Source: a virus (taxonomy: Duplodnaviria > Caudoviricetes). Taken from it: a stretch of 64,000 nucleotides of DNA. This document shows positions 1,760 to 47,509 of the stretch, one piece after another. How positions within the stretch are numbered: position 1 is the first letter of the stretch; each line of letters starts with the position of its first letter. Both the position numbers and the translations under genes were made by a program. Under the pieces are notes generated by a model. That model was given only the letters and a program-made list of their open reading frames with translations, made no database searches and was not told the origin of the DNA. The stretch covers positions 32,001 through 96,000 of IMG/VR virus record IMGVR_UViG_3300006056_000001. One strand, written 5' to 3'.

Positions 1760-4700
1760 TCGTTACCCCAGAAATCATCTAATATTTTTCTAGCTCCTTC
1801 TTGTAATTTTCTGCTAGAGTAGTATGCACCAAAAGCAGATAGTCCCCAGATAGAGTCCTCAGATTCAAGACCGGCTATGAAAGGAGTACCATTAAATATT
1901 AATGGAGAAAGAATAACAGGTAATTGATCTACGTCATTACTACTTTCTATAAAGGCAGGTATGACTGTAGATTTATAAGACATGTGCGTACCCCACTGTG
2001 CTCCTGCAATTAAAGCTTGATTTACAAAATAAGACTTAGCAGGGCCTCCTATTGTCTTTACAATACTTGTAACTAGCTGCATTGGATTTTTAGAGGCAGT
2101 AATCATTTCAGGTATCTTATTCTTTAATGTATCTTTTGCTACATTTTTATATATGTTCCAAGTTTCATTTATACCTCCTTTTATTCCTCCTTTACCAAAT
2201 CTAGTTAGTAATCCCTTTAAGCCTTGTTTTACAGAAAATTGACCTAGAGCTAAAGGAGCAGCGCCACCTACCGTGGATACTATTAAAGCTAAAGTCAATG
2301 CGTCGCTTACAGCATCAATGGTATTATATACAAACTGATAAGTAGTCTCCATGATAGCAGTATGTAAAATGCCTGCTCCTGGATTTGCATCACACACAGC
2401 TTGAGGAATTATGTTAGTAATCCATCCTTGATCTGAGTTCCAATGGTGTACTAAGCTTTCAACTTCTATTGGCCCGGACATCTTAGTATAGGCGTCTGAT
2501 ATAATAATTCTATCATATGGTTTCATATTCTTACCTATTAAGGTAAGCGTACCTCTATACATTTTCTTAACACCTTCTGCTAAGTGGTGGCATGCTAGCT
2601 TAGCTGCTAGATCAGGATTCTGACAATTAAGCTCTGTAAAGACTTGTATCTTTTTATTTGATAGAGTTAATCCAGGATGAAACTGTAGTCCTATAACTCC
2701 AGTAACCTCATTTCTAGGATAATAAACCCATTCAATACCAGCACCAATTCTACCTTCTCTATAGACCTGTTCTTCAGACTCTACTTGGGATTCTGCTGAA
2801 CCAGGCTTAGGATGTTCTATTACTACTGTATTCCACATTTCTCTTGTAGTAGCTACAATACTATTTTTTATAATACTATGGTCGCTGTCTACAAAGTGAT
2901 GCATTCTAAACACTTTCATATTAGGAGCAAGCTGTTTAGAATTATCTAGTGACTTAACCTTCTTTGAAGCTTCTGTATCATTTAACAAATATTGACTAAA
3001 GAAATAAACAAACCCTTTAAACAAGATTAATGTATCATCTATGCTTTCGTTGTTTATTCTATAAGACACATAATTATTCTTGTCTACTTCTTTAAGTTTA
3101 TTAATAACAAGATCCCACACATATGTAAATATTTTTCTTACATCTTTTTGATTGCGGTTATACTCTTTATATTTCCTTAAGCTTGTTGCATGCTCTGGTA
3201 TTAATTTGATTAATTCATCTAGTATATAATCTAATCTGCTTGGTCTTCTTACGTTGGTTGCATATTCTAGCTTTATATAATCTTTAATAGCTTCTAATTC
3301 TGCTCTCTTAGAAGCATTACTTTTTAGACTACTAAGTCTATTAATTAATTCTAGATTTTTTACTGTAACATCATTACTTAATATTTGATCTACATCTTGT
3401 ACAACACTAGGCCAAAATTGATATATCTTGGAATCTTCTATTCCAAAAAACACACCCGCCAGATTAACAGAAATATTTGAATCTCCTATTGAAGATTTTA
3501 CTCTATCTAAATACACAGCAGGAATACTAGAAGATAATAACTTCTTATATATGTTCTCTGTTAGTATTGATTTACCAAAAACAGAGTCTAATAGTTTTTT
3601 AGAGTCTTGTATATAATTTCTTAATTCTTCATAGGACATGAAAGAATAGAAGTCATTAAATGTTGTTTTTACAAAGTTAGCAATCTCTTCTTCTATTTTA
3701 TTACTACCTGGGGTAGGTGTAAAATTAATAAGTAGTTCTAGATTAGAAGGTCCATAAGACTTGTAAAAAGAAGTACTTTCAAAAGATTTAAGCAAAGAGC
3801 CTATTATTTCTTTTGTGTTGGCTAATTTTTGCTTTTGATTGTCTTTGTATTTTTTATTAGTATATGCGTTTCCTCTTGTATAGAAATAAGGCTGGTCAGG
3901 ATGTCCCATGAAGATGGTAGCTTCTCCATCATAAGGAACTACATCTACAATACAATTCCAAGCATGCCTGCTAGCCTCTTTTAAAACGTCCCAGGCTGGC
4001 TGTAGAGGTACTATCCAACTGTCGTTATGCCATGCAGGCATGACACCAAAGACGCTTCTTAAGCCAAATGGGTTGCTATAAAGAGCAGTATCAGGATACC
4101 ATATATTTTTTAATCTGGTGTCAAATCCTTTATCATCTTTGTCTATGCTTCTTCGTCCAATAGATCTAGCTAACCAATTATTTGCATCTCCTAGTAAAGA
4201 TCTTTCCCCTACGTTTTCTAAGTCTATATTTTGATTGTTTTCTATAGATCTATTAAGTACTTCATCTACCGCTTCTGGATTAAGATTCTTTAGGATATAG
4301 GCGGCGTCATGTTCAGGAAAGAACTCTCCAAAGCCTTCTGGATTAGCATATGTTATAGCTTGAATAGCTAAATCTCTAGCTCCCCAGTTCTTTGGATCGT
4401 CACAGTTAAAGCTTACTTGTCTATTAATTAATTCTGCTTTCCATCCTTGAGCTACAATAGTCAGCTCATCACCAGGAACAATTTCTGTGATTCTTCCCGT
4501 AAAAGTAATAGGAAGATTGTAAGCCATAGAAGAGTAGCCCATCCTTATTTGAATAGCTCTTCCTTGTATAAGCTTATATCTCTTTATATAACTGTCTTTA
4601 TCTGGTCCTCTTAGACTACCTAATACTCTTGTTTCATTTTCTGTTTTGTAAGTGTTTTTGTTTTCAAAGTAAGAGCTTTGTAAATGGTAAAGAGGATCTG

Positions 4701-7700
4701 CTAGTTTTATAACAGCTAATGGAGCATCTTCTTTGTCCATTGTAATGTCTATAGAAAGGATAGAAGATACTGAAAAGATAGAGTCATCTGCAATTAAATC
4801 GTTACCACGCTTGTCAATTAAATATACTTTGACAGCAGGGAACATTCTTTCTGGTCCATAGATGTCATCAGTTATTTGATCTATAGCTGAAGTAATACAC
4901 TTTTGTGTAGAGCTGTCTAAGTGACGATGAAATTCTATTTCTTTGTCTATAGGTGTTTTAAATACAGAGTCTGCATCTAGTCTTGGTAATATATCTGTTG
5001 TAAGTAATTTTGCTTTGCTTATTACTCTATATATCTCTCCACCTAATCCTGGAACAGTTACTTCTCTAGGTATAGAATAGTTTCCTTGGTGGTGTAGATA
5101 AAGCTTAATATTATCTTTACCTCCATAATACTTATCTTCAAACTTACTGGCCAACTTTACATAGTCTTCTCTAAATCCAGAAGGATTGCTTTTACTAAAT
5201 TTCTCTAAAGAATTAGTAATCAATTCAGAAAGAGTACTATCAGCTATTTGATAGCTTTTACTACCAGGAACAGACGTTTTCTTTTCTCTTATAAGTCTTT
5301 TTATGTCTTCTATTTCTTCTGTGTTGAAAGGAATAGACAAAGACATCTGTTCACTTACTTTGTTTGTGCTTTCTACAGATTCTTTTGCTATTTTTCTTAG
5401 TTGATCTTTTGTTCTTGTTTTATAAAACCATGCGGCTGGAGAAACAAGGTCTTCTCTATTTACACAAGGTTTACTTCTGTCTTCTACATATTCTAAACCT
5501 AAATCATCAAAAGAAGGAGCAAACTGTTCCCACTGATCTTCAAATAACTGATAGTAAGTAGGAAGAAGCAGATCAGGATAGAGACCTTGTATGTCTTTAC
5601 TAAAATTAGAGATTTCTTTTCTGTATTCTTGTTCCACGGGTTGCTTCTCTAAACTATATTTTGTTATCAGTTTATAGAAGGCTGTGTAGATTCCGTCTGT
5701 AGAGTATATGTAAGGAAGCTGTATGTCCTTTGGTTTTCTTTCTATAATTACATTAAAAAGTGCATCTTTAAAAGAATTTGAAAACCTAATATTGGATTTA
5801 GATAGTTTATCAAAAATTATACTTGTATAAGTATTACCTATTAGTCCAGAAGTTCTATTTCCTAAATAAGAGCCAGTAATATACTGTGCCATTTCTACAT
5901 AGAATTTTTCTGAATCAGATCCTGTGTACTCAAAACAGTTTTTCACTATATTTAATATTGCATTATATATGTCAAAATACTGTTCTTCTTTTCCAGATAC
6001 ACCACTTATTATACTGAATAAGATAGGTAGATTTTTTAATTGATCTGTAATGTTTATCTTTCTATTAGCTACATACTTGCCTACTGCTAAAGGCTCTTTT
6101 AATAGAGCTTCTTTTATACTATTAGTTGAATCTACTTTTCTATGTATTAGAGCTGCTCGTAGAGTATCTGCATTTAATATACCAAACTTAGAGTCTTTCT
6201 TTATATCAGTTAAGCTTTTTTCTACAGGCCAGAAAGCAATGTAGGCTTGATACAACTCATCATTATTCATAACAGAATCAAGAAGAGCTGACGTACCTCC
6301 TTTAGCACGGAACTGTATTTCTTTATCTGTAATATTGTCATAAAACTTACGTAATTCCTTTAACTCAGTTCCACCTGATATTAAAGTCATTTCAGAAGTT
6401 TCAGCTATTCTTATATTATTTTCTAAGAAGTCTACTTTAACATTTATTACATTTGGTAGATCTGTAGTTTCACTATCAATACTAAGAGGAACAAATATAG
6501 TTTCTCCCGGAGCAACAAGGGGCTTCTTATATGTCGTTGAATATAAAAGCTTTGTTACAGGGCTTTTAATGTTCCATCCATATATTCTATCGAACCTCTC
6601 TAAACTTTTATTTATAACATCAGATGTTTCTTTGAATTTACAGAAGTTTAAGAACTCTCTATTACTAGATTGATTATTAAATACAATGTCAAAAGACAGG
6701 CTCTTTCCTGACACACCCATGTGTGTTGCAAAAGAGTAGATCTTTCCTTGTAGTTTATTAAATGCAAACTTGTGGGCAAAAGAGCAACTTTCTGATAGAA
6801 GTATTCCTTGACTTTGTTTGTTGGTTGTTATATCCAACGTAACTTGTTCTTGTGGGCCGGCTATAGGGTTCCCTACTGTGTCTTTTCCATACCAACTAAT
6901 AGTTGTCTTTTGAAAGTCTTCTTCAGAAAGGAATGGAACTTGAGAGTTATCTAAAACCTGATTAATCCATTTAGTAAGCCAATGTGCTCCTCTTGGATAT
7001 TCTACAGGCTCTCCATTTTCTCCTAAGTAAAATAGACCTTCAGATTCTGATATAGGACTTATATCTATTCTAGATATAGTAAGAGTTGCTTGTAAAGTAT
7101 TAACTAGATCTGGAACATTTTCTATGTCTATTCGTTCTAAGGCAACAGGTACATAATTACTATAGTATTTGTTTTGTTTTAAATCTTGTGGACTTAAAGG
7201 TTCTACCATAGAACCAAAACTATAAGGCAGGGTAGAATCATTAAATCCTTTTAAAACAGGAGCTACATTGTTACTAGACAGGTTTTTATTAAGATTTTGA
7301 ATTAAGTATTCATTGTATGTAGCAAAAGAGTTGTCTAGTAAACTAGTTACAGTTGTGCCTCCTACTGTAGCTGCTTGTACAGCCTTATTTAATTTACTGT
7401 TATCTGCAATAAGTTGCTTTACTTTTTCATAGTTTTCTTTATCATTTAGGACATCTTGGTTTTTCCATGCAGAAGTCAAAAATTCATTCTCTAAAGAAAC
7501 TATAGGACAGCTTTTAAACAAAGCTATTAGTGCTCTTAAGCCACTTTGTCCATCGGAATTAACTCCTGCATTTATCTCTTCTAGCCCTGTGAAGATAAAT
7601 CTTATTTGAGCCCTATGTAAAGAATCTCCAGAGTCTACTACAAAGAAGTTGCTAGACCTAGTAGTCTCTAAAATTTTGACACCCTTTCTTTCTTGAAGTG

Positions 7701-7770
7701 CTATTTTTTGAACAGCATGTGTATACTTTAAGGGGCCTATGTAAAGCTCAGAGCTATTTCTTAAGTTCAT
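1756..7770 (-). CDS. Large virion protein with baseplate hub (gp27/gpD-like) region
   Basis: 2004 aa; GRAIQIRMGYS...FTGRITEIVPGDELTIVAQG and C-terminal YRGTLTLIG..MKPYDRIII..EVESLVHHWN..GWITNI are hub-type patterns; upstream of wedge genes. Confidence 0.6.
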   Translation of the reverse strand: MNLRNSSELYIGPLKYTHAVQKIALQERKGVKILETTRSSNFFVVDSGDSLHRAQIRFIFTGLEEINAGVNSDGQSGLRALIALFKSCPIVSLENEFLTSAWKNQDVLNDKENYEKVKQLIADNSKLNKAVQAATVGGTTVTSLLDNSFATYNEYLIQNLNKNLSSNNVAPVLKGFNDSTLPYSFGSMVEPLSPQDLKQNKYYSNYVPVALERIDIENVPDLVNTLQATLTISRIDISPISESEGLFYLGENGEPVEYPRGAHWLTKWINQVLDNSQVPFLSEEDFQKTTISWYGKDTVGNPIAGPQEQVTLDITTNKQSQGILLSESCSFAHKFAFNKLQGKIYSFATHMGVSGKSLSFDIVFNNQSSNREFLNFCKFKETSDVINKSLERFDRIYGWNIKSPVTKLLYSTTYKKPLVAPGETIFVPLSIDSETTDLPNVINVKVDFLENNIRIAETSEMTLISGGTELKELRKFYDNITDKEIQFRAKGGTSALLDSVMNNDELYQAYIAFWPVEKSLTDIKKDSKFGILNADTLRAALIHRKVDSTNSIKEALLKEPLAVGKYVANRKINITDQLKNLPILFSIISGVSGKEEQYFDIYNAILNIVKNCFEYTGSDSEKFYVEMAQYITGSYLGNRTSGLIGNTYTSIIFDKLSKSNIRFSNSFKDALFNVIIERKPKDIQLPYIYSTDGIYTAFYKLITKYSLEKQPVEQEYRKEISNFSKDIQGLYPDLLLPTYYQLFEDQWEQFAPSFDDLGLEYVEDRSKPCVNREDLVSPAAWFYKTRTKDQLRKIAKESVESTNKVSEQMSLSIPFNTEEIEDIKRLIREKKTSVPGSKSYQIADSTLSELITNSLEKFSKSNPSGFREDYVKLASKFEDKYYGGKDNIKLYLHHQGNYSIPREVTVPGLGGEIYRVISKAKLLTTDILPRLDADSVFKTPIDKEIEFHRHLDSSTQKCITSAIDQITDDIYGPERMFPAVKVYLIDKRGNDLIADDSIFSVSSILSIDITMDKEDAPLAVIKLADPLYHLQSSYFENKNTYKTENETRVLGSLRGPDKDSYIKRYKLIQGRAIQIRMGYSSMAYNLPITFTGRITEIVPGDELTIVAQGWKAELINRQVSFNCDDPKNWGARDLAIQAITYANPEGFGEFFPEHDAAYILKNLNPEAVDEVLNRSIENNQNIDLENVGERSLLGDANNWLARSIGRRSIDKDDKGFDTRLKNIWYPDTALYSNPFGLRSVFGVMPAWHNDSWIVPLQPAWDVLKEASRHAWNCIVDVVPYDGEATIFMGHPDQPYFYTRGNAYTNKKYKDNQKQKLANTKEIIGSLLKSFESTSFYKSYGPSNLELLINFTPTPGSNKIEEEIANFVKTTFNDFYSFMSYEELRNYIQDSKKLLDSVFGKSILTENIYKKLLSSSIPAVYLDRVKSSIGDSNISVNLAGVFFGIEDSKIYQFWPSVVQDVDQILSNDVTVKNLELINRLSSLKSNASKRAELEAIKDYIKLEYATNVRRPSRLDYILDELIKLIPEHATSLRKYKEYNRNQKDVRKIFTYVWDLVINKLKEVDKNNYVSYRINNESIDDTLILFKGFVYFFSQYLLNDTEASKKVKSLDNSKQLAPNMKVFRMHHFVDSDHSIIKNSIVATTREMWNTVVIEHPKPGSAESQVESEEQVYREGRIGAGIEWVYYPRNEVTGVIGLQFHPGLTLSNKKIQVFTELNCQNPDLAAKLACHHLAEGVKKMYRGTLTLIGKNMKPYDRIIISDAYTKMSGPIEVESLVHHWNSDQGWITNIIPQAVCDANPGAGILHTAIMETTYQFVYNTIDAVSDALTLALIVSTVGGAAPLALGQFSVKQGLKGLLTRFGKGGIKGGINETWNIYKNVAKDTLKNKIPEMITASKNPMQLVTSIVKTIGGPAKSYFVNQALIAGAQWGTHMSYKSTVIPAFIESSNDVDQLPVILSPLIFNGTPFIAGLESEDSIWGLSAFGAYYSSRKLQEGARKILDDFWGNE

Positions 7771-10700: not shown

Positions 10701-10835
10701 TATAGCAAAATCTACTCTGTCTATGTCACCTAAAGCAATAGGGTGATATGCTTCTACAAGAACATTGTAGAACTCTGAAGAAGAAGTCCTTCTAATTCCT
10801 GTTTGACTTATAACGCTACAAATTGGTAGTGGCAT
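7767..10835 (-). CDS. Virion-associated right-handed beta-helix protein (putative depolymerase/adhesin) with C-terminal S/T/V-rich repeats
   Basis: 1022 aa; IYWDWNGGSDSNSGLTTSLPVKSFEKA is the pectin-lyase-fold cap motif; HSDIFQF; ~20-aa repeats SxSV(I/L)P in the C-terminal third. Confidence 0.6.
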   Translation of the reverse strand: MPLPICSVISQTGIRRTSSSEFYNVLVEAYHPIALGDIDRVDFAISSNGGGSSTTSVTSRAMWYPNDSEYDDPLPGSWGGGPSPIWCFGIKIEMASYAAGYIDVIPTVYGGSGESVTLSTVRIYNDKDGTDRRPSPKTIYWDWNGGSDSNSGLTTSLPVKSFEKAAQLASTSNDCGGATIYVNAAGSHKVTGTNFGQNQELYTSGHHWLTVLPKAGLSRDDVKLISLASNEDLSNNWMYFKGTDSPGLRQARVRFSDITIVNPGFKVGPWSYGEMHIWIDHCISAPPAPFDQAVLGTGLHIRSIETVAGSVDIPNKKDMIDRIFVSGSIRRCTFGGGQWGDIVRGCWIDKFAGQVFQPQYRNSALVNILVTDIYQEVGVSGRFEAQGSFRIENIGTSRYRIQANAGYAGQDFVPALAYLSGSPVLGIRLENFTTSTNNNMAVGFLSGGYSGSLPWVDVITTGSANNLTPESDASATVTNGNLRVGNTTTNYNTWGPHSDIFQFIQTESYPVQNFIISNFAVFPAWETQGIFGSTSNMSGIAFVNYYDGGINDGPRSFYYASSSNITKNILIRDSYISRLEVSSTDLIENSEILDSVFGLLSASEGTMSSYTGQVNTQYNHFTGSLLIGGHASSGRYFSSTTPALSTDATVSATSTAYGTASTFWDRPTPWYENSKGPWLNVSLADWSFTETTGGGTSGNVIYTGAVSTSTSVIPSHTIRVRKDVNEIYSSSVIPPATYKERISVSSSTSNSVIPSISKNIQIALGQLSCSSVLPPSTVVIKPTIGVLYSTSVLPPITTYFSQVEFSTLVSNSILPASTYKVTISKNALENSSIIPAISLSTKTSVSSPDVNVLTVSSAGSNGNTTSVYILFGLDQVHVQSITAADVTVSTVIPIIVNINSFSLSISGSDVGVTYFNNPAPEVPDLDFNEGDKSFPPNQFFFSNEEEPEIEEDETVRIMKQLANINQDLVSLPSLDKQFWSQNIIENIRNVQFSKNVINLMTSNYKDLNKIKKDIASKTLKNK

Positions 10836-13800
10836 TAGTATGTATAATCACTGTTAGATATTTCCCTCATTTGTCTTTCAAGTAAATAAGGGTTATTTGA
10901 TGCAGATCTTTCTCTTATGGTAATATTAGAACTACCCGAGTTAGAAATTCTATAAGGACCAACAGAAGAAGGAGATAGATTTTCTCTTCTTCTAGATGCT
11001 GTAAAACTTTGATTAGTACCATAAACTTTAGCCGGCCTAGATGGGTATATAGGATCTGGAGCCAAATCTTCTGGCTGTCGGACATCTATATCTCTAGGCA
11101 TAGAAGGACCTGACATAAGAGAGACTAGTGCTCCTCCCATGACCGCTCCTGCTCCTAAGCCTGCTAAAAATTTATTGTTTGTTGCAAACTTCTTAGCTGC
11201 TAAATATTTTGATCCAGTCTTAGCTGCTTGTTTCTTTTCTTCATGTTCTAGAATAGTTTCAGCAAATTTGTTTTGTGCTATAGATTCTGGAGCACCTATT
11301 ACACCTCTCATTAGTCCTAGAAGCTCTTCGTCTTCTGTTCCTTCTTTTATAGTCTTTTGTAAAACACTTCTTATTGTACTAGGTTGTTTAGTAACAGAAG
11401 CACTAAGTACAGCTCCAACACCTACATAGGATCCTAGGAGTCTTGCAGTCTTTGAAATAACATTTGCTTCTGCTCTAGCCAGCTCTTCTTTAGAAGCTCT
11501 GGTTAGATCTCCTAGTAAAAGATCTGTAGTTTGTTTATCTAACATGCCTTTATTGGCCATCCAATCTAAGGCCATAAAAGCTCTTCCTTTTTCATTCTTT
11601 AAGAAGTCTTCAAACAGAGCAGATGCTTCTGTCTCTACTGTTTCTAAATCAAAAGAAGTTCTTCTATACTTTTGTCCAAGATTTATAAGTCCTTCGCCTA
11701 ATCCAGTTAGGCCCGCTTTTGTATGTCCCTTCTGAACTGCACCTTGGTACATGCTTTGCATTAACTGCTGTATTACAGATACTTTTTCTGGATCATTAAA
11801 TTTACTAACTATATTATCTATAATAGATGAAGGAATGCCTCTATCTAAAACACCCATTTTCTTGGCGCCTTCGGCACCATAAGCAGTTATGTTAGCCATG
11901 ATCTCATCAGAAGATCTTACCATACTGTATCCTAAAGATTTAGGCACACCAATAAAATCTTCTATATAATCTACTGCTTTAACAAAAGGTTTGGTAACTA
12001 AGTGGTTTACTAATTTTGACAATCTTCCTGCAGAAGTAGCAGAACTTGCTACTTCTAACTGTCTATTATAATACTTAACGAATGGACTAATTTTGCTAGT
12101 TTGTCTTGCAAATCTATCTTCTAAAGCTGTAGGATCTGCAAGCCCTTCCATAGAGATTAAGTTTACTACGTCACGGTCTATATCTCTTTCTACAGATCTA
12201 TGAAACAGTGGGTTTAACGTAATATTTAATTGACCAAAGAAAGAAGGAACACCAGATTTCTTGATGTGTATTTTTTGTAACATCATGTGTTCTGCTCTTT
12301 GAGCAGGATCCACACCTACTACTCCATAGAAATACCCTCGTTTCTTTACAGCATCTAATGTAGCTTTTCTATTTTCTGTGTTAGCAGGCCCTGATTTTCT
12401 TAGATACCAGTCTTTAAATCCTTCTTCACTTATATAAGAAGTATAAAATTTCTTAGGATCTAGTAAGTCTGACTTATTAAAGCCGCCTAATGTATCTGGT
12501 GAAATTCTTGCTCTAGTTCCAAATTTAATATGTAAGGTATTTGTTTTAGCAAAGATACCATCTCTTCCAGCTAAAGATTTTACAATACTACTATATTGTA
12601 AAGGACTAGATGAATCAAAACTTCTACCAGATTCTAGTTCTATTAATGACTTTAAGAACTCATGTCCGGTGTGTGACTTACCTACTGTGGTGTATCCGTG
12701 TGCTCCAGGAGTAGCTCTTAAGTACTGTAAGGGTATAGGTAAATATCTCATTTGTCTTTCTTCACCTAATACACTAATTTTTCTGGCGCTTCCTAAATCT
12801 AAGTAAGCCAGATCAGTATTTAATCCAAGAGCCGTATCTTTAAGTAAGTCTTTGTGTACTCCGCCTGTAGAATGAGCAAAAGCAGATATAGAAGGAAGTC
12901 TAGCTAATGGACTACCATTCAACTCTAGCCCACCCTTACCTAAGGTTAATATAGTAGATGAAGCATCTAAGCCAGGTGTTCCTAACAAAGCAGAGGCAAA
13001 TCTATGTAATGTGTGGTTTCTAGAGAGTGTTAATTGGTTAGATCCTTGTCTAATTCTTATTAAACCTTTTGACCAAACATCATGTTTAGAAGTTAATCCG
13101 GCAAACACAGGATCATCATATGAAGAAGAATAGCCAAGTAGTCTAGATGAATTAGCAAGAATTTGCATCTTAGATAGAGTCATTCTTACTCCTTTCATCA
13201 TATTTATATCACCCATGAAGTCCGATCTACGTCCTCCACGCATACCAAATATTTTGATTCCTTTGACTCCTTGTATTGGCAATGAGGCTTCTTCTCCATA
13301 TTCTACTCTGTTAGCAAGTAACTTTAAGGATAGATTATCACTTTTCTTCCATTCATTAAGCTTAGCAGTTGCTTGTAGGAATGCAGTGTTTGCATCTGTT
13401 ATTTCTGGAACATATGTTGATTTAGATCTTTGTACTTTTTCAACAAGATTGTTTCCAAAAGTATCTCTAAGTAATGCTTCTCCTTGAGGGTGTTGTCTTA
13501 ACTGATGTATGAAGTTTGTAGTTAGTACGTCTTGCCCGTGGGTCTTAGCAAACTCATCTGCTGCAATAACGTAGTCTACGCCTAGTCTAGATGCTAGATC
13601 TTTTAAATGACTTCTTCCTATTCTACCACCTGTAAATCTTCTTCCACCTACAACTGTTTCTATAGTCTCAGGTATGACTTTTTGTCCAGACAAGAAGCTT
13701 AATTCTATCTTATCTGGTGTCATTCTTATTTGATTTAATGTAGCTTGATTATTTGCTATTTGTAGTAGCAATCCTCTATTGTATCCTTTAGGTCCTAGTA

Positions 13801-15193
13801 TTTTTCTTATCAGTTTTTGTCTATCTGTTAAATCTCCACCAGATAGTGCTGCTCTAACATCTGCCTTTGTAAAGGCACTTGATGCATCTACTAATTGATC
13901 TCCTTTTGCAAGGTTCACTCCAAACAATTCTTCTATTGCAGATGTAACAGATGTATTAGGAGAAGAGATTTTCATCGTTCCTACGGGTGCTCGGAAAGCC
14001 AGTTTATTGGCTCCAGAAGCAGTCATGTAGGCGCCACCTTCTCCAAAGAGTAATCTAGAGTACTGTTCGTTTTCTAAGTCTACTACAGCTACTCTTAACA
14101 TCTGTTCATCAGCCATCTTAGACAACTGATGCAATCCTTTCTTAGCTGTGTGTTCTTCTATTAAAGTACCATATTTAGTAGCATATTCTTTTCCTGCTAC
14201 TAAGAACTTTTTCTTATTACCTAGGAAATCAGCCTTCCCATAGATGTAAGACTCGTCTAAACCTAAATGTTTTAAAAAGGTAGGTAAGGACTGGCTGAAA
14301 TACTCTTTTCTATATTGCTGTATAAGCTCTAGAGCTTCTGGTGTGTTAAGATCTTTATTTCTAGAAACTCTCTTAAGATCATTATACACAGATCTTCCAA
14401 CTGTCTTAGACATCATAGAGAATGCAGAGGTTGCTATTCTATATTTTGACAGTTTATCTGCGAACAGAAGGCCTTCGTCTGAATAACCTACAACCGCATT
14501 TAGGCTAGAGGCATATCCTTGTTCAAAAGGACTTTGTAGTCCTCTAGATGTTGTGCCTGATAGTGTTATAGAGCCTAATCTTAGATTATTAATATTAGGC
14601 ATGTCTTTAACAGACAGGCGGTAGTCTCTTATCTTATTTAAGGCTCCAGAAAGAGCTAAATGAGGATAGTCTCCTCGATAAGAATCTATAGACTGTGCTA
14701 TTAATTTTTCTGCACTAGAGTAATAAGTACTTAAATAACTTTTCCTTTCAAAAGAAGATTCTCCAGCATAGCCTACTAAAAGACTATTTACTTTTCTACT
14801 TCTGCCTCCTATATCAATTCCACCAAATGTATTAGCTGTTGGAAGGAACGCGGACCTTCCACTTGAGTATAAAAACAGAGCATTAGTCTTTTCGTTAAAA
14901 CCAACTTGCCCACCTACAGACTTTATTCTTTCAAATACATTTCTTGCTTCTTCTGGTACTAATCCTGACTTATGTAGTTTTTCAAACATAAAGTCAATAT
15001 TTTTACCAAAAGCTAGCTGACTTCCTTCTTCTAAATTATATGTATCTCCTTTTCTTAAGACATCCCTGTAAGAGCTAGTCTTACCCGCGCTTAGGATCTC
15101 TATAGCGGAAGCTTTCTCTTTAAACGTACTAGGCGGTCTTCCTAAGCCTAAAACATCTGTAATTGTTCTGTAGATAGGGTTATCTTGTGACAT
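10835..15193 (-). CDS. Virion protein: diverged single-chain two-barrel RNA polymerase homologue (beta + beta' motifs)
   Basis: 1452 aa; colinear matches to beta (MLRVAVVD...FGEGGAYMT; GVDYVI...GQDVL; KGVRMTLSKM) and beta' (YLPIP..LR; LAGRDGIF...GTRARISPD; ITLNPLFHRSVERDIDRD). See findings. Confidence 0.65.
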   Translation of the reverse strand: MSQDNPIYRTITDVLGLGRPPSTFKEKASAIEILSAGKTSSYRDVLRKGDTYNLEEGSQLAFGKNIDFMFEKLHKSGLVPEEARNVFERIKSVGGQVGFNEKTNALFLYSSGRSAFLPTANTFGGIDIGGRSRKVNSLLVGYAGESSFERKSYLSTYYSSAEKLIAQSIDSYRGDYPHLALSGALNKIRDYRLSVKDMPNINNLRLGSITLSGTTSRGLQSPFEQGYASSLNAVVGYSDEGLLFADKLSKYRIATSAFSMMSKTVGRSVYNDLKRVSRNKDLNTPEALELIQQYRKEYFSQSLPTFLKHLGLDESYIYGKADFLGNKKKFLVAGKEYATKYGTLIEEHTAKKGLHQLSKMADEQMLRVAVVDLENEQYSRLLFGEGGAYMTASGANKLAFRAPVGTMKISSPNTSVTSAIEELFGVNLAKGDQLVDASSAFTKADVRAALSGGDLTDRQKLIRKILGPKGYNRGLLLQIANNQATLNQIRMTPDKIELSFLSGQKVIPETIETVVGGRRFTGGRIGRSHLKDLASRLGVDYVIAADEFAKTHGQDVLTTNFIHQLRQHPQGEALLRDTFGNNLVEKVQRSKSTYVPEITDANTAFLQATAKLNEWKKSDNLSLKLLANRVEYGEEASLPIQGVKGIKIFGMRGGRRSDFMGDINMMKGVRMTLSKMQILANSSRLLGYSSSYDDPVFAGLTSKHDVWSKGLIRIRQGSNQLTLSRNHTLHRFASALLGTPGLDASSTILTLGKGGLELNGSPLARLPSISAFAHSTGGVHKDLLKDTALGLNTDLAYLDLGSARKISVLGEERQMRYLPIPLQYLRATPGAHGYTTVGKSHTGHEFLKSLIELESGRSFDSSSPLQYSSIVKSLAGRDGIFAKTNTLHIKFGTRARISPDTLGGFNKSDLLDPKKFYTSYISEEGFKDWYLRKSGPANTENRKATLDAVKKRGYFYGVVGVDPAQRAEHMMLQKIHIKKSGVPSFFGQLNITLNPLFHRSVERDIDRDVVNLISMEGLADPTALEDRFARQTSKISPFVKYYNRQLEVASSATSAGRLSKLVNHLVTKPFVKAVDYIEDFIGVPKSLGYSMVRSSDEIMANITAYGAEGAKKMGVLDRGIPSSIIDNIVSKFNDPEKVSVIQQLMQSMYQGAVQKGHTKAGLTGLGEGLINLGQKYRRTSFDLETVETEASALFEDFLKNEKGRAFMALDWMANKGMLDKQTTDLLLGDLTRASKEELARAEANVISKTARLLGSYVGVGAVLSASVTKQPSTIRSVLQKTIKEGTEDEELLGLMRGVIGAPESIAQNKFAETILEHEEKKQAAKTGSKYLAAKKFATNNKFLAGLGAGAVMGGALVSLMSGPSMPRDIDVRQPEDLAPDPIYPSRPAKVYGTNQSFTASRRRENLSPSSVGPYRISNSGSSNITIRERSASNNPYLLERQMREISNSDYTY

Positions 15194-18100
15194 TATCTTA
15201 GCCTGTCTTTAATTTCTCTAGTCTTGTCTAAAGTATATTCGCCTTCTAAGTATCTATTAGATCTATTAGGTGTAGAGAATCTTTTTATCTTAAAATTACC
15301 TTTAGATACTTTATAGTTTTGTTCCATGATAAAAGAGTCAAAATTTGAATACAAAGGAGACTGAACAAAGTTTATTTGTTGATTACCAAACTCTTTTAAT
15401 CTAGTTTTTAAATCTACTTCATGAGATTCATAGAAACCATATCTATGTATGTTATCAGAAACACCATTTATACCATGTTCTATAAATCTTAATCTAGTTG
15501 CTGCATTAGATATTTCAGGAGTCCATCCTAACCAAGAACTATCAGGAATCTGATTTTGATTGATAAAATCAAGTGCTATTTGGTCAGATTGATCTCTATC
15601 ATTAAAGTTACCTGCCCATGTTTGAGTTAATCCTCTAGTCATGAACTCAGGTAAACCTCTTAGTATTTGCGCTCGAATCTCTGGGTCTTCTTGAGACACA
15701 AAGTAGTCAAAATACTTACGGTCTGCAGATCTAGGTAGTGAAGCTCTATATCCTATAGTATTTTTTGCTCCAACCATTGTTCTATCTGCAAACTGTGGTC
15801 CTCCTCCTGCTTCTTGTATCATTCTGCCTTTTATATACCCTATGGTATCCATATACTCTATAGCATCATTTTCTTGACGTATATGATAAGGAAGAGAGTC
15901 TTCTCCTCCCATACCTACCATTCTTGCAGTGCTAAGGCCTGCTCCTAGGACAGCTCCTCCTTTAATAGCTCCTATGTTCACCATAGCGCCTCCAGTAGGG
16001 CCTACAATCGACTTAATAGGAGTGAACCACCTCATGGGTCCAGATAATAAGAACCCGAATGTAGCGCCTTTACCGGCTGCTGTAAGTGGGTCTTCTAAAG
16101 CAGTATCATAAAGGGCCGGTCGAATAACGTCTTCCCAAGGAGTATTCCAGGAAGCATATTCTGATCCTTCTACGTACATTTTTCTATACTGTTCGTATGG
16201 ACTTCTAAATGGAAAAAATTTACTACCTAAGTAAGGAATTTCTGCTAGGACATCATGTGTCAAGAAATCATATGCTTTTCTTACAGGAGCATAAATACTT
16301 TTTGCAATAGTATTCATGTTTAAAGCTATTAGGTCTTCTTCGTACCTTTTATATCTTGTGTCAACTCCAATAACTTCACTTCTATTCTCTATAGCTCTAT
16401 CTACTTTTTCTTTCCATTCATCTTCTAGCCCCATATTTAATACTATCTTTTCATATTTTTTATATGCCGCACTATAAGGAGCTACATCAGATAGTATCAA
16501 AAATTTATCAACATCGCTATAGACACCTGATCTTCCAGAGTGTAGTTTATTTAAGGCCTCGTATCCAACACCTGGTAATCTTGCTTCTCCATCCGCTATC
16601 TTAATAAATGGATCTCCCATATGGAAGTCAACAAAATAATCTCTATCTCTACCTCCTGTAGAATTAGATCCAGGAAGCCAACCAGGCATATTATTAAGTA
16701 TTGGATTGACCATTGCAGATCTTCTATACTCAGCACTATAATCAGAAAGCATATATCTTCTGATAAGCTCTGTTTGTCCAAACATTCCGTTTATAGCAGA
16801 GTCATATAGTAATCTACCGGGATCTTTCATTATGGCGCTTGTGGCATACTGTGTACCTATATCAGGACCAAAAGTAACACCAAAGAAGCTCATTGCAAAT
16901 TTATAAATACCTAGTGGCTCAGTAGCAATATTTGCTTGCTTAGCCATTGTATTTAAAAGACTCATTGGATCTTCTGCTTCGTAGGATGTAGCTGCCATAG
17001 CAGGCATACCGTACAACCTAGCTGTATTGGCAGTTAATCCTCTTTGTGCTAATCCTGCTTCTAGTAAAGGAAGTCTATCCGGCTCTCTATATCTAGTAGG
17101 CTTCATTAATTGACCAACTGTTGCACTTAATATTGGGCCAAATTCAGGGAACCTACTTAGATCAGATTCTGTGCTAATATAAGGTCTATCATTATAGTGT
17201 CTTTCTTCTAGCCTATATGGGTTGAGTATATTAAGTACTCCAAACAAGTTAGAAGGAGTAGGGAAAGGTATTCCAAAGACGTTCGCATGATAAGACCAAT
17301 ATTCTGACTTATCTCCATACATAGATTTTGTTCTATAATCAGAAGTCAGTTTATTATACCAACTAGATTCATATCTATCTGGTTTACCTCCAAAGAAAGG
17401 AAGGTAGCCTAATCCCCAAAGTCTACCTTTTCTGACAGGTACTTTTCTATCTCCACTATACTCTTCCATCAATTCTGATGGACTTTGGCCAGGATCTGGA
17501 CCTCCGATTGCTGCATATGTTCCTGCGCCAGCTAGTAATCCTTTTAAGAAACCTCCTCTTTTAAATACAGCATTTGCTGCAGCTATTGGAGCCCCAAGGC
17601 TTCTTAACACATAAGAACCATCTGAGTTAACAGATCCCGGGAAATAAGTGTCTAGGAAATTGCTAGCTGCGCCTATACCTGTTATTTGACGTGCATATTG
17701 TTGTGCAACTCTAGCTCCTGCATACAAAGAAGCAACTGCTTTTATAGGAGAGATTCCTGTGAACTTCTCTGTTAAATAATCTGCATATAAACCTGCTTGT
17801 TTAGCTGTTTCATATGCAACAGGTACTAAAGAAGACCGAATTAAGTTTTTTACAAAGCTATGATCTGGCTTCATTCCTATGCCTAATAAAGACTCTGACA
17901 TAAGACTATTCAAGCGATATAGTCCATACGTACTAACATCTCTTATACCATTCGCTGCCCTCTTTAATCTACTTCCGCCTTCTATGTCATAATAAGCATA
18001 TCTATTAGACACAGTAGGGAATCCTACTGCTGTTAGGTCTCCTTTGTCTATATCCGACATTAAGTTAACCATACTATTAGTCGTAATAGTTTTACCTGTG

Positions 18101-19560
18101 ACTTCATAACTTCCTTTCTTTACAGGTATGACTAAGTCTTGAGAAATTAAAGCTCCTCTTATATTTCTAGAATATTCCTGATAACTTCTTTTCTTGACTA
18201 TACTAACATCATCTACTATGTCAAATAGTACTCCTACTCTATTTGGGATTAACTTTGTAGAACCAGAAAGGTCTTGGAGTCTTGTTACTCTTCCTCCTCC
18301 CGGTACTTTAATATATCCTCCGCCTACTTTAGCTAGTTCTGGTAAGTCTCCTCCTAGAACGCTATCTAATACTTTAGATACAGCAAAATTATGCTTATAT
18401 GGATTATGCATAATAATACCTGTACCTTCTCTAAGAGACTTCAATCTCTTATAAGGGTTAATAGCAAGCTTTTCTATTAAAGTAGGTCTAGTAGAGAATG
18501 CAGGACCTATGCCTAAATTCTGCTCCATCCACCCTATTATTTTACCAAAAAATCCAGTTCTATTTGGTAAAGATATTTCTAATCTTCCTTGTCTAGATGC
18601 ATCTATTACTTCAAAAGGATTTCCGGTCTTTCTTAAAGACCTTTGTGTTCCTAGTAATGTTTCTTTATATTTTCCTGTAGAGGGGTTAAGACTATATCCA
18701 TAAACATTGCCTCCAATAAATACTCTGCTTCCGTTATAATTGTCTCCTGGTCCTAAGACTGCAATATTTCTAGGAGATCTAAATAAAGAACCAAGAACTT
18801 GGCCTTGACCAAACATATCAAATCTAGCAGATCTTTGATAAATAGTTTTTCCATTAATTTCTATAGGGGATACTGTACTTAATATGTTTCTAAGTCTGAC
18901 ATCTAGTACTTCTTTTCTTCCTTGATGTAAGAATATTTTAGAATCTAATATTTGATTAGATTGAACTAATCCAAGCTTATGTGCTTTTTCTACAATTCCA
19001 TATTGCTCTCCCCCTAATACACGAGACCAGTTCTTTTGATCAGAAAGAACGTCTCCAAAGGTAACCCTTTGTAAGGACTGAGGGAAGAAGCCGGTGTTGT
19101 TTCCATAATTAGCTAAAGCTCTATTTGTATACTCTACAGTCCTTTTTCCAATAGCGTCTGATATAGTCTGTCTATTATTTGATGCATTAAGGCCCATCAA
19201 CTCAATAGAGTTTCTTAAGTCATCTATAATATCTATAGGACCAAGATTGACTTGTTTCTTGTTAAAGTCATAATTAAAATCTAATAAAGATCTTAGTCCT
19301 GTAGTATTACCTTTTATAGCAGACTTTCCTGTATTAGCTGCTACATCTCCTTCTAAGTTTATTCCTTTTACCATTCCTAAGAAGTTAAATAGATTGTCAC
19401 TTAAACGTCCCCCATGGGCCAATCTACTTCTTAGTAATAACGCTCCAAGACCAATAGTACCTATACCTGCAACGAGAGGATTAATCCAATTGCGATTCTG
19501 TTGAATTGCATTAGTTCTTTCTACCTCTTTTTGCTGATTAATATAGTTACTATTATCCAT
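15193..19560 (-). CDS. Large virion protein at the tape-measure position (tape measure / ejection protein candidate)
   Basis: 1455 aa directly after the tail chaperones; several Gly/Ala-rich hydrophobic segments; no enzyme motif recognised. Confidence 0.5.
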   Translation of the reverse strand: MDNSNYINQQKEVERTNAIQQNRNWINPLVAGIGTIGLGALLLRSRLAHGGRLSDNLFNFLGMVKGINLEGDVAANTGKSAIKGNTTGLRSLLDFNYDFNKKQVNLGPIDIIDDLRNSIELMGLNASNNRQTISDAIGKRTVEYTNRALANYGNNTGFFPQSLQRVTFGDVLSDQKNWSRVLGGEQYGIVEKAHKLGLVQSNQILDSKIFLHQGRKEVLDVRLRNILSTVSPIEINGKTIYQRSARFDMFGQGQVLGSLFRSPRNIAVLGPGDNYNGSRVFIGGNVYGYSLNPSTGKYKETLLGTQRSLRKTGNPFEVIDASRQGRLEISLPNRTGFFGKIIGWMEQNLGIGPAFSTRPTLIEKLAINPYKRLKSLREGTGIIMHNPYKHNFAVSKVLDSVLGGDLPELAKVGGGYIKVPGGGRVTRLQDLSGSTKLIPNRVGVLFDIVDDVSIVKKRSYQEYSRNIRGALISQDLVIPVKKGSYEVTGKTITTNSMVNLMSDIDKGDLTAVGFPTVSNRYAYYDIEGGSRLKRAANGIRDVSTYGLYRLNSLMSESLLGIGMKPDHSFVKNLIRSSLVPVAYETAKQAGLYADYLTEKFTGISPIKAVASLYAGARVAQQYARQITGIGAASNFLDTYFPGSVNSDGSYVLRSLGAPIAAANAVFKRGGFLKGLLAGAGTYAAIGGPDPGQSPSELMEEYSGDRKVPVRKGRLWGLGYLPFFGGKPDRYESSWYNKLTSDYRTKSMYGDKSEYWSYHANVFGIPFPTPSNLFGVLNILNPYRLEERHYNDRPYISTESDLSRFPEFGPILSATVGQLMKPTRYREPDRLPLLEAGLAQRGLTANTARLYGMPAMAATSYEAEDPMSLLNTMAKQANIATEPLGIYKFAMSFFGVTFGPDIGTQYATSAIMKDPGRLLYDSAINGMFGQTELIRRYMLSDYSAEYRRSAMVNPILNNMPGWLPGSNSTGGRDRDYFVDFHMGDPFIKIADGEARLPGVGYEALNKLHSGRSGVYSDVDKFLILSDVAPYSAAYKKYEKIVLNMGLEDEWKEKVDRAIENRSEVIGVDTRYKRYEEDLIALNMNTIAKSIYAPVRKAYDFLTHDVLAEIPYLGSKFFPFRSPYEQYRKMYVEGSEYASWNTPWEDVIRPALYDTALEDPLTAAGKGATFGFLLSGPMRWFTPIKSIVGPTGGAMVNIGAIKGGAVLGAGLSTARMVGMGGEDSLPYHIRQENDAIEYMDTIGYIKGRMIQEAGGGPQFADRTMVGAKNTIGYRASLPRSADRKYFDYFVSQEDPEIRAQILRGLPEFMTRGLTQTWAGNFNDRDQSDQIALDFINQNQIPDSSWLGWTPEISNAATRLRFIEHGINGVSDNIHRYGFYESHEVDLKTRLKEFGNQQINFVQSPLYSNFDSFIMEQNYKVSKGNFKIKRFSTPNRSNRYLEGEYTLDKTREIKDRLR

Positions 19561-20579: not shown

Positions 20580-21273
20580 ATGTTACTAATTTGATTATTT
20601 TTTTAGAAGAAATAAAGCTATAAACCTCATAAAGAGGATCTGAGCTTCCTTCTGCTCCTGCTTGGGATATAGATTGACTAAGTTCATTAAAATGAACATT
20701 TTCAAATCTAATAAACCATGTTTGATAAGCAGGATCTTGATAATATACGTCCATTATAGTATTTTCTTTAAGTAGTACTATAGGGCTATCTATACTATCT
20801 ATTCTAGAACCTAGTTGAGCAGGCGTAAATAGATTTTCTAATGCTTTTTTAGTAGCCTCTTTTGTATCTTTTTTTGATATCAAGCTGGCTATATATTCTG
20901 CTCTGGCTGCTCTTTCTTCTGGTGTTCCATTAGGAGGCAGCTCAGTGCTTAATTCTTTTTGTACATTATTTGTTAAAATATTATCTTGTTTTCTATCGTA
21001 AGAATAATTATACAGTCTAGGAATAAAAGTATTTTGTTTTTCGTAAGATTCGTCCAAAACTGTGTTAAGATATCCTGGAAAGGTAAAGTTTAAAGTTAAT
21101 AATCCTTGTACTATTACTCTTCCATAAGCTACTTTAGAAAAGAAAGGATCATTATATCCATATATAGGCACTTTTGATGCCCCTTCTTTGAACTGTAGTT
21201 GATATGCTTGGTCAATATGTATTCCATTAAGGAATACTGCAACAGTACTAGATGTTGGATATAAATGTGTCAT
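20569..21273 (-). CDS. Tail tube-like paralogue
   Basis: KVPIYGYND..FSKVAYGRVIVQGLLTLNF aligns with KAPVYSMGE..RSFSRGKRGIAGSIVFV of 22093..22779. Confidence 0.6.
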   Translation of the reverse strand: MTHLYPTSSTVAVFLNGIHIDQAYQLQFKEGASKVPIYGYNDPFFSKVAYGRVIVQGLLTLNFTFPGYLNTVLDESYEKQNTFIPRLYNYSYDRKQDNILTNNVQKELSTELPPNGTPEERAARAEYIASLISKKDTKEATKKALENLFTPAQLGSRIDSIDSPIVLLKENTIMDVYYQDPAYQTWFIRFENVHFNELSQSISQAGAEGSSDPLYEVYSFISSKKIIKLVTYEP

Positions 21274-22031
21274 TAAATTATACCATACTTACCTAAGTAA
21301 GAGTCTGGACCAGCACCAGGTCGTCTAAATTTCTTTCTAATAGCTTGTACTTTTTCTTCTACAGAGCCGTACTGCTTAGACATTGTTTCTTGTATTAGCT
21401 GACTTAGGTTTCTATATCCTTCCAACGTAAATCCTTCTGTCTCCTCTCTTGCTATAGATACATTTGAAGCAGAGAGTGGGATAACATCGGTCGCAACATA
21501 GCTGTATGTTACTTCAGTGTATAAGTCATCTACGCTATAAGTAGTACCGTAGTTTACTAAAGTAATGCCGTGTATTACTTGTATAGCAGCAGCTCCTTTT
21601 TCATTGGCCGCTGTTATTACTATTGAGAAGGGAGGAAGCTGATCTGAAGTCAGAGATGTAGAAGAGGCCATCATACTAGAGGCAATATCTTGATCATATA
21701 TCTCTTTAAATACATCTTGATTAACAGATGCAAAAACTAAGGTTCCTGCGAATGTTCTAGCTCCTCGGGTATAAGCTACTGGACTTTCTCTTCCTAAAAC
21801 TCTAACAGGAGAGATAGATCTTGTAGAAGATATAGAAATTGTTTGTATTTCGGCTAATAGCTTAGACTTTGGATTTTTTGTATTAAGTAAAGCACTATTC
21901 CTTGTAGCTAAAGGAAGATATACATAAGCGCTTATATCACTTCCTGAGAAGGATTGAAAATCTGCCTGCTTACCTAAACTAGGTCTAAGAAGCCGAGCTA
22001 CCTCATCATTAACATAAACAGTTTTACGCAT
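21273..22031 (-). CDS. Tail tube-like paralogue
   Basis: SFSGSDI...EIQTISIS...PVRVLG..RGARTFAGTLVF...DQLPPFSIVITAANEKG; clear paralogue of 22093..22779. Confidence 0.7.
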   Translation of the reverse strand: MRKTVYVNDEVARLLRPSLGKQADFQSFSGSDISAYVYLPLATRNSALLNTKNPKSKLLAEIQTISISSTRSISPVRVLGRESPVAYTRGARTFAGTLVFASVNQDVFKEIYDQDIASSMMASSTSLTSDQLPPFSIVITAANEKGAAAIQVIHGITLVNYGTTYSVDDLYTEVTYSYVATDVIPLSASNVSIAREETEGFTLEGYRNLSQLIQETMSKQYGSVEEKVQAIRKKFRRPGAGPDSYLGKYGII

Positions 22032-31953: not shown

Positions 31954-31955
31954 AA

Positions 31956-31991
31956 ATGAAATAGGGCCGTCCATAATTAAATGGACGACCC
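31956..31991 (-). terminator. Intrinsic terminator after the major capsid gene
   Basis: GGGTCGTCCAT-TTAATT-ATGGACGGCCC followed by TATTTCATTT on the minus strand. Confidence 0.65.
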
Positions 31992-32015
31992 CGTTAGTTA
32001 GTTAACTACCTGATA

Positions 32016-46762: not shown

Positions 46763-47059
46763 AGGTATCCTTTGGAGAGTAATAGATACCCATCGAATTT
46801 GGACCAACAATATTCTAAGAACCGCGAGAGTGTCAAATATTTGCCTTATAGAGATAAAATTTAAAAAAATATATAAAAAAATTAATGCCAATTTATATAA
46901 TCAAAATATTGCCCTAAGCTTGTTAAAAAATTACAATTTTGGAGATGATAGTTGTTGATTATGTTGCTGCAAGACGTTCTTGCGGAACACGGTCACCCCT
47001 GTCTTTTGAGACGAAGACAGGTGAACTCAAGGTCTCAAGCCTTAGGAGGCTTTTCTATC

Positions 47060-47443: not shown

Positions 47444-47509
47444 GATGGACATAGGTGATGTGACCTACCTACATACAAGTGGTCACATTTCTTGATACTG
47501 GAGGGTATC

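Follow-up and report, generated by a model that had tools for sequence, protein, structure and literature searches.

What does a giant protein that escapes routine annotation do in the tail module of a large phage? The question is raised by P0001, a protein of 1452 amino acids (aa) encoded by an uncultured phage of about 190 kb, IMG/VR virus record IMGVR_UViG_3300006056_000001, which is complete (189,716 bp) and has direct terminal repeats. Positions 32,001 to 96,000 of this record were analyzed as one stretch of 64,000 nucleotides (the window), and coordinates below refer to it unless the genome is named. The open reading frame (ORF) of P0001 occupies 10835-15193 on the minus strand and starts with ATG. 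A preliminary description, made from the sequence alone, had read P0001 as a single-chain homologue of RNA polymerase (RNAP) subunits beta and beta'. That reading was supported by the analysis described here: the two checks that could have overturned it, for barrels in a predicted structure and for profile similarity to beta/beta', were carried out, and neither overturned it. Taken as a whole, the locus is best explained by a single-chain two-barrel polymerase, most likely a DNA-dependent RNAP, that is delivered by the virion, and we regard this explanation as likely.

A predicted two-barrel fold and its conserved residues

Residues 310-1260 of P0001 (951 residues) were modeled with AlphaFold2 from a 56-sequence family alignment and no templates. 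The core model reached a predicted local distance difference test (pLDDT) value of 87.6 and a predicted template modeling (TM) score of 0.86, and five models all had pLDDT values of 84-88. When the model was compared with the PDB using Foldseek, the top 50 matches were RNAP large-subunit chains, almost all of the beta' type and including those of phages AR9 and phiKZ. The best match was 7s01_d, from the AR9 non-virion RNAP (E 1.1e-4), and 8que_A was also among the best. VIA-align was run against 48,161 representative chains and then on the 996 candidate chains supplied by Foldseek. Its first rank was taken by QDE-1 (Z 11.2-11.4), with 342-366 aligned residues that cover both barrels and the connector between them (model residues 12-885), followed by vaccinia Rpo147 (Z 10.0) and Pol II Rpb1 (Z 9.7-10.2). 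Further matches were the Pol I, Pol IV, Pol III, archaeal, and African swine fever virus large subunits, as well as AR9 and phiKZ beta' fragments. Phage and silencing enzymes were represented by P74-26 gp62 (Z 8.8), RDR2 (Z 8.4), P23-45 gp96 (Z 7.2), and crAss-like gp66 (Z 5.8, 427 aligned residues over model residues 1-890). After rescoring, 517 of the 996 Foldseek candidates had Z of at least 8, and the best 50 listed were all RNAP large-subunit chains or QDE-1. The nearest ESM Atlas clusters were phage proteins with PF00562 and PF00623 (TM 0.46-0.47 over 538-576 residues), and a search of BFVD returned crAss-like, poxvirus, and jumbo-phage RNAPs together with an uncharacterized protein of phage ME3.

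The two halves of the model matched different subunits. Chains of the beta/Rpb2 type aligned to model residues 1-355 only, and beta'/Rpb1 chains aligned to residues 400-951. Isolated double-psi beta-barrel (DPBB) proteins (CDC48-N, VAT-N, designed DPBBs, expansin, and kiwellin) matched two places only, model residues 50-350 and about 577-722. The predicted structure holds two DPBBs, the feature that the preliminary description had proposed to look for, and the isolated domains match both of them. The model supports a two-barrel RNAP fold for the P0001 core, in which the beta-like half would precede the beta'-like half that carries the DxDxD motif. The parts of the protein, all on the minus strand, are as follows.

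10835-15193, minus strand: whole gene P0001, a single-chain two-barrel RNA-polymerase-like protein of 1452 aa (ORF list, translation, and a family of 54 clusters)
14159-15193, minus strand: N-terminal domain, aa 1-345, with the near-universal start peptide M1, D4, N5, P6 (AlphaFold2 model m3ad430f73645, pLDDT 84.2)
13217-14119, minus strand: beta/Rpb2-like DPBB region, about aa 359-659, to which R519, R656, and D662 are assigned (superposition)
12530-13216, minus strand: inter-barrel connector, about aa 660-888, counterpart of the beta' N-terminal (clamp-core) region, with RYLPxP (aa 816-821) and G876/G879 (superposition)
12107-12529, minus strand: beta'/Rpb1-like DPBB, about aa 889-1029, with R896, D962-P963, Q965, H969, and the catalytic loop (DPBB matches and Foldseek)
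12170-12184, minus strand: DIDRD, D1004/D1006/D1008, candidate Mg-binding triad (invariant in 57/57 members; hhalign register with beta')
11414-12106, minus strand: all-helical region, aa 1030-1260 (secondary structure of the model)
11108-11170, minus strand: predicted transmembrane helix, about aa 1342-1362, FLAGLGAGAVMGGALVSLMSG (Kyte-Doolittle; aligned across the family)
10838-11107, minus strand: conserved proline-rich C-terminal tail, aa 1363-1452, ending in S-D-[YF] (family conservation)

Within the beta-like region, the matching chains were 8qma_A (Z 7.9), 4c2m_B (Z 7.2), and 6j9e_C (Z 6.6), all over model residues 1-355. The connector was placed by the alignments of Rpb1, Rpo147, and AR9 beta' chains, which start at chain residues 7-26 and at model residues 414-428. 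In superposition, the helical region coincides with the Rpb1 portion containing the bridge helix and the trigger loop, the alignments continuing to model residue 951 and to Rpb1/Rpo147 residues of about 1190-1410; inside it lies an invariant YQG-VQKG motif (Q1150 and K1155, window 11726-11749). The top 19-residue Kyte-Doolittle window of P0001 is the one at aa 1342 (mean 1.82), and the tail that follows the predicted transmembrane helix conserves P1366, P1374, D1376, P1379, S1448, and D1449. The model of the N-terminal domain had no convincing fold match, its rows being mostly generic helical hairpins; the sole broad structural row was vaccinia Rpo132 (Z 6.2 over 182 aa).

A word-indexed search identified seven relatives of P0001 (29-96% identity), and an exhaustive profile search enlarged the family to 54 clusters at 50% identity, known from metagenomes only, 46 of which had E below 1e-30. 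A locus search from the close alignment added one further IMG/VR contig. Nearly all clusters are 1450-1950 residues long. Among 60 family sequences searched, at least 10 contain a DEDD exonuclease of the PF00929 type within the chain, its insertion point lying behind the conserved N-terminal peptide. Conservation was assessed in a 57-member full-length alignment with a mean column identity of 19%, and a core alignment was examined separately. Only eight residues are invariant among the 57 members (R896, P963, R1003, D1004, D1006, D1008, Q1150, and K1155), four of them accounted for by R-D-x-D-x-D. Because it is invariant at such a low mean identity, the acidic loop is the most conserved feature of the family. 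Each full-length member has exactly one DxDxD, at the aligned place, and the loop takes the form D-[ILTV]-D-R-D, Phe being present in just 2 of the 57. Upstream, D962, Q965, R966, and H969 are conserved at 80-90% or more in the family order D-P-x-Q-R-x-E-H. The core alignment adds invariant R519, R656, and D662 in the beta-like half, where E/D385 is also conserved among close relatives.

Two-barrel RNAPs have eight residues in common, namely four Asp, three Arg/Lys, and one Pro (PMC2919709). In their active site the barrel with DxDxD faces a barrel that gives two basic residues (PMC7824862), and the contribution of the beta-like barrel, one Asp and two basic residues, is exemplified by Rpb2 D837, K979, and K987 (PMC2919709, PMC7824862). 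The composition of the invariant set of the P0001 family fits this common set, although the likeness, drawn from aligned sequences, is one of composition. The order of R519, R656, and D662 differs from that of the active-site basic and Asp residues of QDE-1, and R896 and R1003 are invariant alternatives to the usual upstream Arg in the N-R-x-P-x-L-H order of two-barrel RNAPs.

The motif assignments of the preliminary description could be compared with these data. All nine segments that it quoted were found in P0001 in the claimed order (aa 365-372, 382-393, 496-521, 538-557, 667-679, 815-829, 873-881, 891-900, and 991-1012), and its placement of the three aspartates was correct: DIDRD comprises residues 1004-1008 and is the sole DxDxD of P0001. 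The beta' pairing at this place, for which identical spacing had been claimed, was recovered: ITLNPLFHRSVERDIDRDVVNL aligned ungapped with E. coli beta' with 7/22 identities and hhalign chose the same register. When the family profile was aligned by hhalign with E. coli beta' residues 1-700, the single best local alignment was to beta' 446-472 (E 0.019, weak alone). The loop is directly preceded by the invariant R1003, and an NPL upstream stands at the spacing of HPL...NADFDGD in beta'. The proposed pairings of beta-like motifs fared differently. They were not reproduced by hhalign, and what speaks for them is the superposition of the N-terminal half on beta/Rpb2 chains, their sole support.

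The preliminary description had also called the protein too diverged for routine annotation, and this was borne out by the searches, in which the core was matched neither by Pfam, PHROGs, nor PDB sequences, nor by tblastn against 50,697 phage records. Pfam and PHROGs scans of P0001 gave no match (nor any peptidase domain by Pfam), and phmmer and a profile search against PDB sequences did not match the core. The tblastn searches of the phage records with P0001 and P0058 left the core unmatched, and the family member P0020 matched through its exonuclease only. A feature search of the ESM Atlas returned nothing usable for the core. No meaningful core alignment was obtained when the family profiles were compared by hhalign with phi14:2 gp66, P23-45 gp96 (1-1200), the C-terminal half of E. 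coli beta, 0305phi8-36 gp146, or ME3_36. PF00562 (RNA_pol_Rpb2_6) and PF00623 (RNA_pol_Rpb1_2) matched neither P0001 nor any other part of the genome, and 14 of 14 control genomes were matched by them. PF05183 was absent from P0001 and from the whole genome at E up to 1; a genome search with PF00940 was empty, and no positive control matched it.

The tape-measure slot and its occupants

P0001 is encoded within a 78-kb minus-strand block of structural (late) genes. Its start overlaps the stop of an upstream 1455-aa ORF (P0061) by one base, and its stop overlaps the start of a downstream 1022-aa ORF, also by one base. In the order of transcription the block encodes the terminase, portal, capsid, sheath, two tubes, three small proteins, P0061, and P0001; the 1022-aa protein, a 2004-aa peptidoglycan-hydrolase protein, and more giant proteins follow. 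The landmarks of this block are listed below.

39891-41786, minus strand: large terminase
35820-37949, minus strand: portal
32016-33362, minus strand: major capsid protein
22790-24457, minus strand: tail sheath
22093-22779 and 21273-22031, minus strand: two tail tube paralogues (phrog_9206 match; noted as tail tube and tail tube paralogue in the 0305phi8-36 GenBank record)
15193-19560, minus strand: upstream partner P0061, 1455 aa, with several hydrophobic Gly-rich segments, a gp145 homologue (tblastn matches to gp145 and ME3_35)
1756-7770, minus strand: 2004-aa protein with a peptidoglycan-hydrolase domain, counterpart of the gp147 hub/endolysin (phrog_20474, E 7.9e-31; a member of this family is also downstream in L005, and hub and endolysin are annotated in both 0305phi8-36 and ME3)

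The label of phrog_9206, "major head protein", is misleading here because its 0305phi8-36 members are annotated as tail tube in GenBank. P0061 had no Pfam or PHROG family match. A P0061-like gene is always found directly upstream of the polymerase-like gene in relatives, with 55% identity in one (L004) and 36% in a more distant one (L005), where the RNAP-like proteins are less conserved (32% and 17%, respectively). In the distant relative the genes run tube, tube, three small genes, P0061-like, polymerase-like, lysin giant, small genes, and baseplate wedge, so that the order from tube to wedge is retained though the RNAP-like proteins align at only 17% identity.

Comparison of terminase and P0061 places Moorella MTATph1, Bacillus 0305phi8-36 with its kin, and Acinetobacter ME3 closest among cultured phages. 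In 0305phi8-36, the homologue of P0061 is gp145; the tape measure was assigned to the gene that follows, orf146, and orf147 encodes the hub/endolysin (GenBank record; PMC2147016). Both gp145 and gp146 were detected in 0305phi8-36 virions by mass spectrometry (GenBank record). Since P0001 is syntenic with 0305phi8-36 orf146 and with ME3_36, it is placed in the tape-measure slot. The preliminary description had located it in the tail module, which holds, and beside the tape-measure position, which does not, for by this synteny the gene occupies the slot itself.

The slot is filled by quite different proteins. Like P0001, 0305phi8-36 gp146 and ME3 gp36 are encoded between a gp145-like protein and the hub/lysin giant and end in a C-terminal transmembrane helix and a tail. 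Neither gp146 nor its counterpart in the Moorella phage has a DxDxD, and gp146 looks largely helical. The C-terminal membrane module of gp146 aligns weakly but co-linearly with the C-terminus of the family: hhalign paired the extreme C-termini (E 0.0087), and hmmsearch aligned positions 1376-1513 of the 1522-position family hidden Markov model (HMM) with gp146 2372-2526 (independent E-value 0.0023 at Z=4). An unannotated DEDD-exonuclease-like motif, TYLDIETTGL, was seen by eye only at about residue 1220 of gp146 (L019:5838-13451), and it parallels the DEDD exonuclease of some P0001 family members. The known RNAP of 0305phi8-36 is encoded elsewhere, by the YonO-like orf99, which belongs to the non-structural arm (PMC2147016).

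In Acinetobacter phage vB_AbaM_ME3, the same slot is occupied by ME3_36 (L020:14355-19166), a hypothetical protein of 1603 aa with DHDQD at aa 1217 and a C-terminal hydrophobic helix. The family profile did not detect ME3_36, and a search of the ME3 genome with the family HMM was empty. The uncharacterized ME3 protein found in BFVD resembles the P0001 model (Foldseek E 1.4e-6) and, judging from its size and segment number, is probably ME3_36.

A candidate virion-delivered polymerase and the alternatives

The phage probably carries P0001 in its particle and injects it to start its own transcription, as judged by analogy with other phages. Activity is established for the virion two-barrel RNAPs P23-45 gp96 and crAss gp66 (PMC10770324; bioRxiv 10.1101/2020.03.07.982082). 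In the proposed mechanism, P0001 would be made late alongside the tail genes, incorporated into the particle, and would leave through the tail together with the DNA. Its C-terminal module would then tether it at the inner membrane, where it would transcribe the first phage genes without the host enzyme. The E-R-D1004-I-D1006-R-D1008 loop of the beta'-like barrel would bind the catalytic Mg ions, and the helical region may supply elements like the bridge helix and the trigger loop. We infer packaging and ejection from the position of the gene and from the mass-spectrometric detection of its positional counterpart in virions of another phage; the catalysis, template, product, and role assigned to P0001 are likewise putative.

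The closest parallel is P23-45 gp96 (PDB 8H2M/8H2N; PMC10770324), which, like P0001, is a single-chain two-barrel protein in the tape-measure position with a DxDxD and membrane segments. Both are almost without sequence similarity to cellular RNAPs. The match of gp96 with the P0001 model extends across both barrels (Z 7.2, 214-290 residues) and is at the superfamily level only. However, gp96 is a 5002-residue protein of a long-tailed siphovirus, in which the polymerase forms the N-terminus of a genuine long tape measure that also has a metallopeptidase; it has the canonical DFDGD, lacks a clamp, and has a connector of about 66 residues. P0001, in contrast, belongs to a contractile-tailed phage and has 1452 residues, no peptidase, DIDRD, and a connector (about 230 residues) which in superposition falls on the beta' clamp region. 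There was no hhalign similarity between P0001 and gp96 residues 1-1200, and a paralogue search of the genome of P0001 found no second, non-virion copy.

Other known enzymes share some of these properties. The crAss-like phi14:2 gp66 (PDB 6VR4) is a single-chain two-barrel RNAP delivered with the virion; its gene belongs to a series of genes for giant proteins, and its neighbor gp65, like the neighbor of P0001, P0061, is a large associated protein of about 1400 aa. Unlike P0001, gp66 has 2180 residues, belongs to a podovirus, carries DFDxD, lacks such a C-terminal transmembrane module, and gave no hhalign match. The QDE-1/RDR2/YonO-like enzymes (PF05183 lineage) resemble P0001 in having one chain and no reported sandwich-barrel hybrid motif (SBHM) flap, and QDE-1 is the best structural match; they differ in being soluble and encoded outside the structural genes, QDE-1 has DYDGD, and PF05183 does not match P0001. 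The multisubunit beta/beta' enzymes and the phiKZ and AR9 RNAPs have the same two-barrel active-site architecture, and phiKZ-like phages likewise package an RNAP in a myovirus particle (PMC7598289). Nonetheless, the phiKZ and AR9 RNAPs consist of four or five polypeptides, are recognizable by Pfam, and are encoded outside the tail module.

Several observations weigh against a virion-delivered RNAP. No sequence-profile method (Pfam; hhalign with gp66, gp96, and E. coli beta) tied P0001 significantly to any RNAP family, and Z values of 10-11 for a 951-residue model are solid, not overwhelming. The loop, ERDxDRD, departs from both NADFDGD and DFDxD, and the R-x-P order that usually lies upstream of it was not seen in the family. 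It is not obvious what the DEDD exonuclease, inserted in some family members, would do in a model of transcription. No phage-specific promoter was found, a k-mer count of the intergenic DNA having yielded tRNA arms only, and a repeat of about 40 nt cannot be called a general early promoter because it is confined to 46.8-52.1 kb of the window.

The exonuclease leads to the first of three other explanations, which are taken here in falling order of likelihood (a non-transcriptional polymerase, an inactive structural relic, and a modeling artefact). P0001 could be a true two-barrel polymerase that is not a promoter-dependent transcriptase and instead copies RNA or single-stranded DNA, acts as a primase, or synthesizes DNA, with the DEDD exonuclease as a proofreader or processing nuclease. 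Its best structural matches, QDE-1 (Z 11.4) and RDR2 (Z 8.4), are RNA-silencing polymerases that use RNA and single-stranded DNA templates (PMC9508822). Moreover, the pairing of a polymerase with an exonuclease, as in the at least 10 of 60 family chains mentioned above, is typical of replicases such as PolD DP1-DP2 (PMC6355029). PolD was, however, absent among the VIA-align matches with Z of at least 5, and the genome already encodes a family-A DNA polymerase with an exonuclease as well as a primase-helicase. The QDE-1-like clade also includes DNA-dependent RNAPs, namely the YonO and P23-45 enzymes (PMC5467207, PMC10770324), and a location in the tail module suits an early, injected function. 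We consider a non-transcriptional polymerase unlikely.

It is rather improbable that P0001 is a structural tail component, a tape measure or an ejection channel, whose two-barrel core is an inactive relic kept for architecture or DNA binding. Such a relic would suit a slot held elsewhere by the gp146 tape measure, with its weakly similar C-terminal membrane module, and a slot that needs no polymerase, as gp146 and its Moorella counterpart lack DxDxD; the altered NADFDGD and R-x-P signatures would also agree with it. Against this, R-D-x-D-x-D provides half of the invariant residues at 19% mean identity and the other barrel has invariant Arg and Asp residues, which indicates selection for chemistry and not for scaffolding, and the core model is compact and globular, not an extended coiled coil. 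Finally, the absence of significant sequence-profile similarity to any RNAP family and the modest Foldseek E-values against the PDB (1e-4 to 1e-2) could mean that the fold is a modeling artefact and DxDxD a coincidental acidic loop of an unrelated giant protein, which is very improbable given a template-free model from the family alignment with five models at pLDDT 84-88, the same fold from four independent libraries, halves that match different subunits in the right order, and isolated DPBB domains that match exactly two places.

Returning to a virion-delivered RNAP, we advance a broader proposal tentatively, as plausible yet short of probable: the 0305phi8-36-like lineage would have a modular protein in the tape-measure slot, in which a two-barrel RNAP, with or without a DEDD exonuclease, is an optional addition ahead of a shared C-terminal anchor. 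The RNAP would be threaded through the contractile tail and become fixed to the inner membrane, there to transcribe the incoming genome and perhaps to pull it in or process it. This would be a second origin, independent in sequence, of an arrangement known only from Thermus phage P23-45.

To our knowledge, proven virion-delivered two-barrel RNAPs are limited to a few phages, namely crAss-like podoviruses, the Thermus siphovirus P23-45, and phiKZ-like phages with multisubunit enzymes, and we know of no RNAP partnered with an exonuclease. P0001 would be of a known kind, with a family that appears unrelated in sequence to the described families tested; 23 published RNAP family alignments lie outside this comparison. 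The combination of a contractile-tailed lineage, an ERDxDRD loop, a long clamp-like connector, a C-terminal anchor, and an optional exonuclease is a feature set not described together. If the proposed function is true, virion delivery of RNAP reaches an ancient lineage of large contractile-tailed phages that includes the cultured Acinetobacter phage ME3. It would also give a testable account of giant unannotated tail-module genes, and the E-R-D-x-D-R-D loop would be a very divergent active-site variant for comparisons of RNAP evolution. How a globular polymerase of about 160 kDa could fit through a tail tube is a question that follows, and the exonuclease-polymerase fusions within the family are a further problem. 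ME3_36, being encoded by a cultured phage, would be a ready experimental system.

Other features of the window and the genome

Like the Pfam searches described above, a search for paralogues and a DxDxD scan of all ORFs found no other RNAP gene in the 189,716-bp genome, which counts in favor of the proposed role of P0001. In a 205-aa ORF, at genome positions 155847-156044 on the plus strand (locus L023), Sigma70_r2 was matched weakly (15.4 bits, E 0.0027, under the cut-off). Judging from its sequence, this ORF may encode a phage sigma factor, and the weak match to sigma-70 region 2 hints that later genes are possibly transcribed by the host enzyme. A DnaQ-like 3'-5' exonuclease gene (phrog_403, E 4.9e-80) at 41759-42499 on the minus strand adjoins the large terminase in the late block; its resemblance to the in-chain DEDD exonuclease of the P0001 relatives is at the motif level only.

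The region at 46800-52100, where the late minus-strand block meets the plus-strand genes, is GC-rich (0.44-0.53 versus about 0.35) and ORF-poor. It contains five or six copies of the repeat of about 40 nt, GCCCGnGG-TGTCAAATAnnTGAYACTnCCnGTATG, at 46823, 50456, 50853, 51193, 51504, and 52018, and a scan with a position weight matrix found none elsewhere in the 190-kb genome. The repeats could be an array of promoters or repeated structured RNAs. ARAGORN reported a tRNA with anticodon CTA (labeled Pyl, amber-reading) at 30937-31010 on the plus strand, which may be spurious, being antisense within a 965-aa ORF (29077-31974). A Pistol ribozyme (RF02679) was matched at full length by Rfam at 61114-61179 on the plus strand, with 42.5 bits against a gathering score of 34.5. 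In another part of the genome, 100233-101822 on the plus strand (L011:5233-6822), lies a gene for a vWA-domain protein of the Ro60/TROVE type (PF25045, E 7.9e-19); the gene for a nicotinamide phosphoribosyltransferase is nearby (L011:12674-14113).

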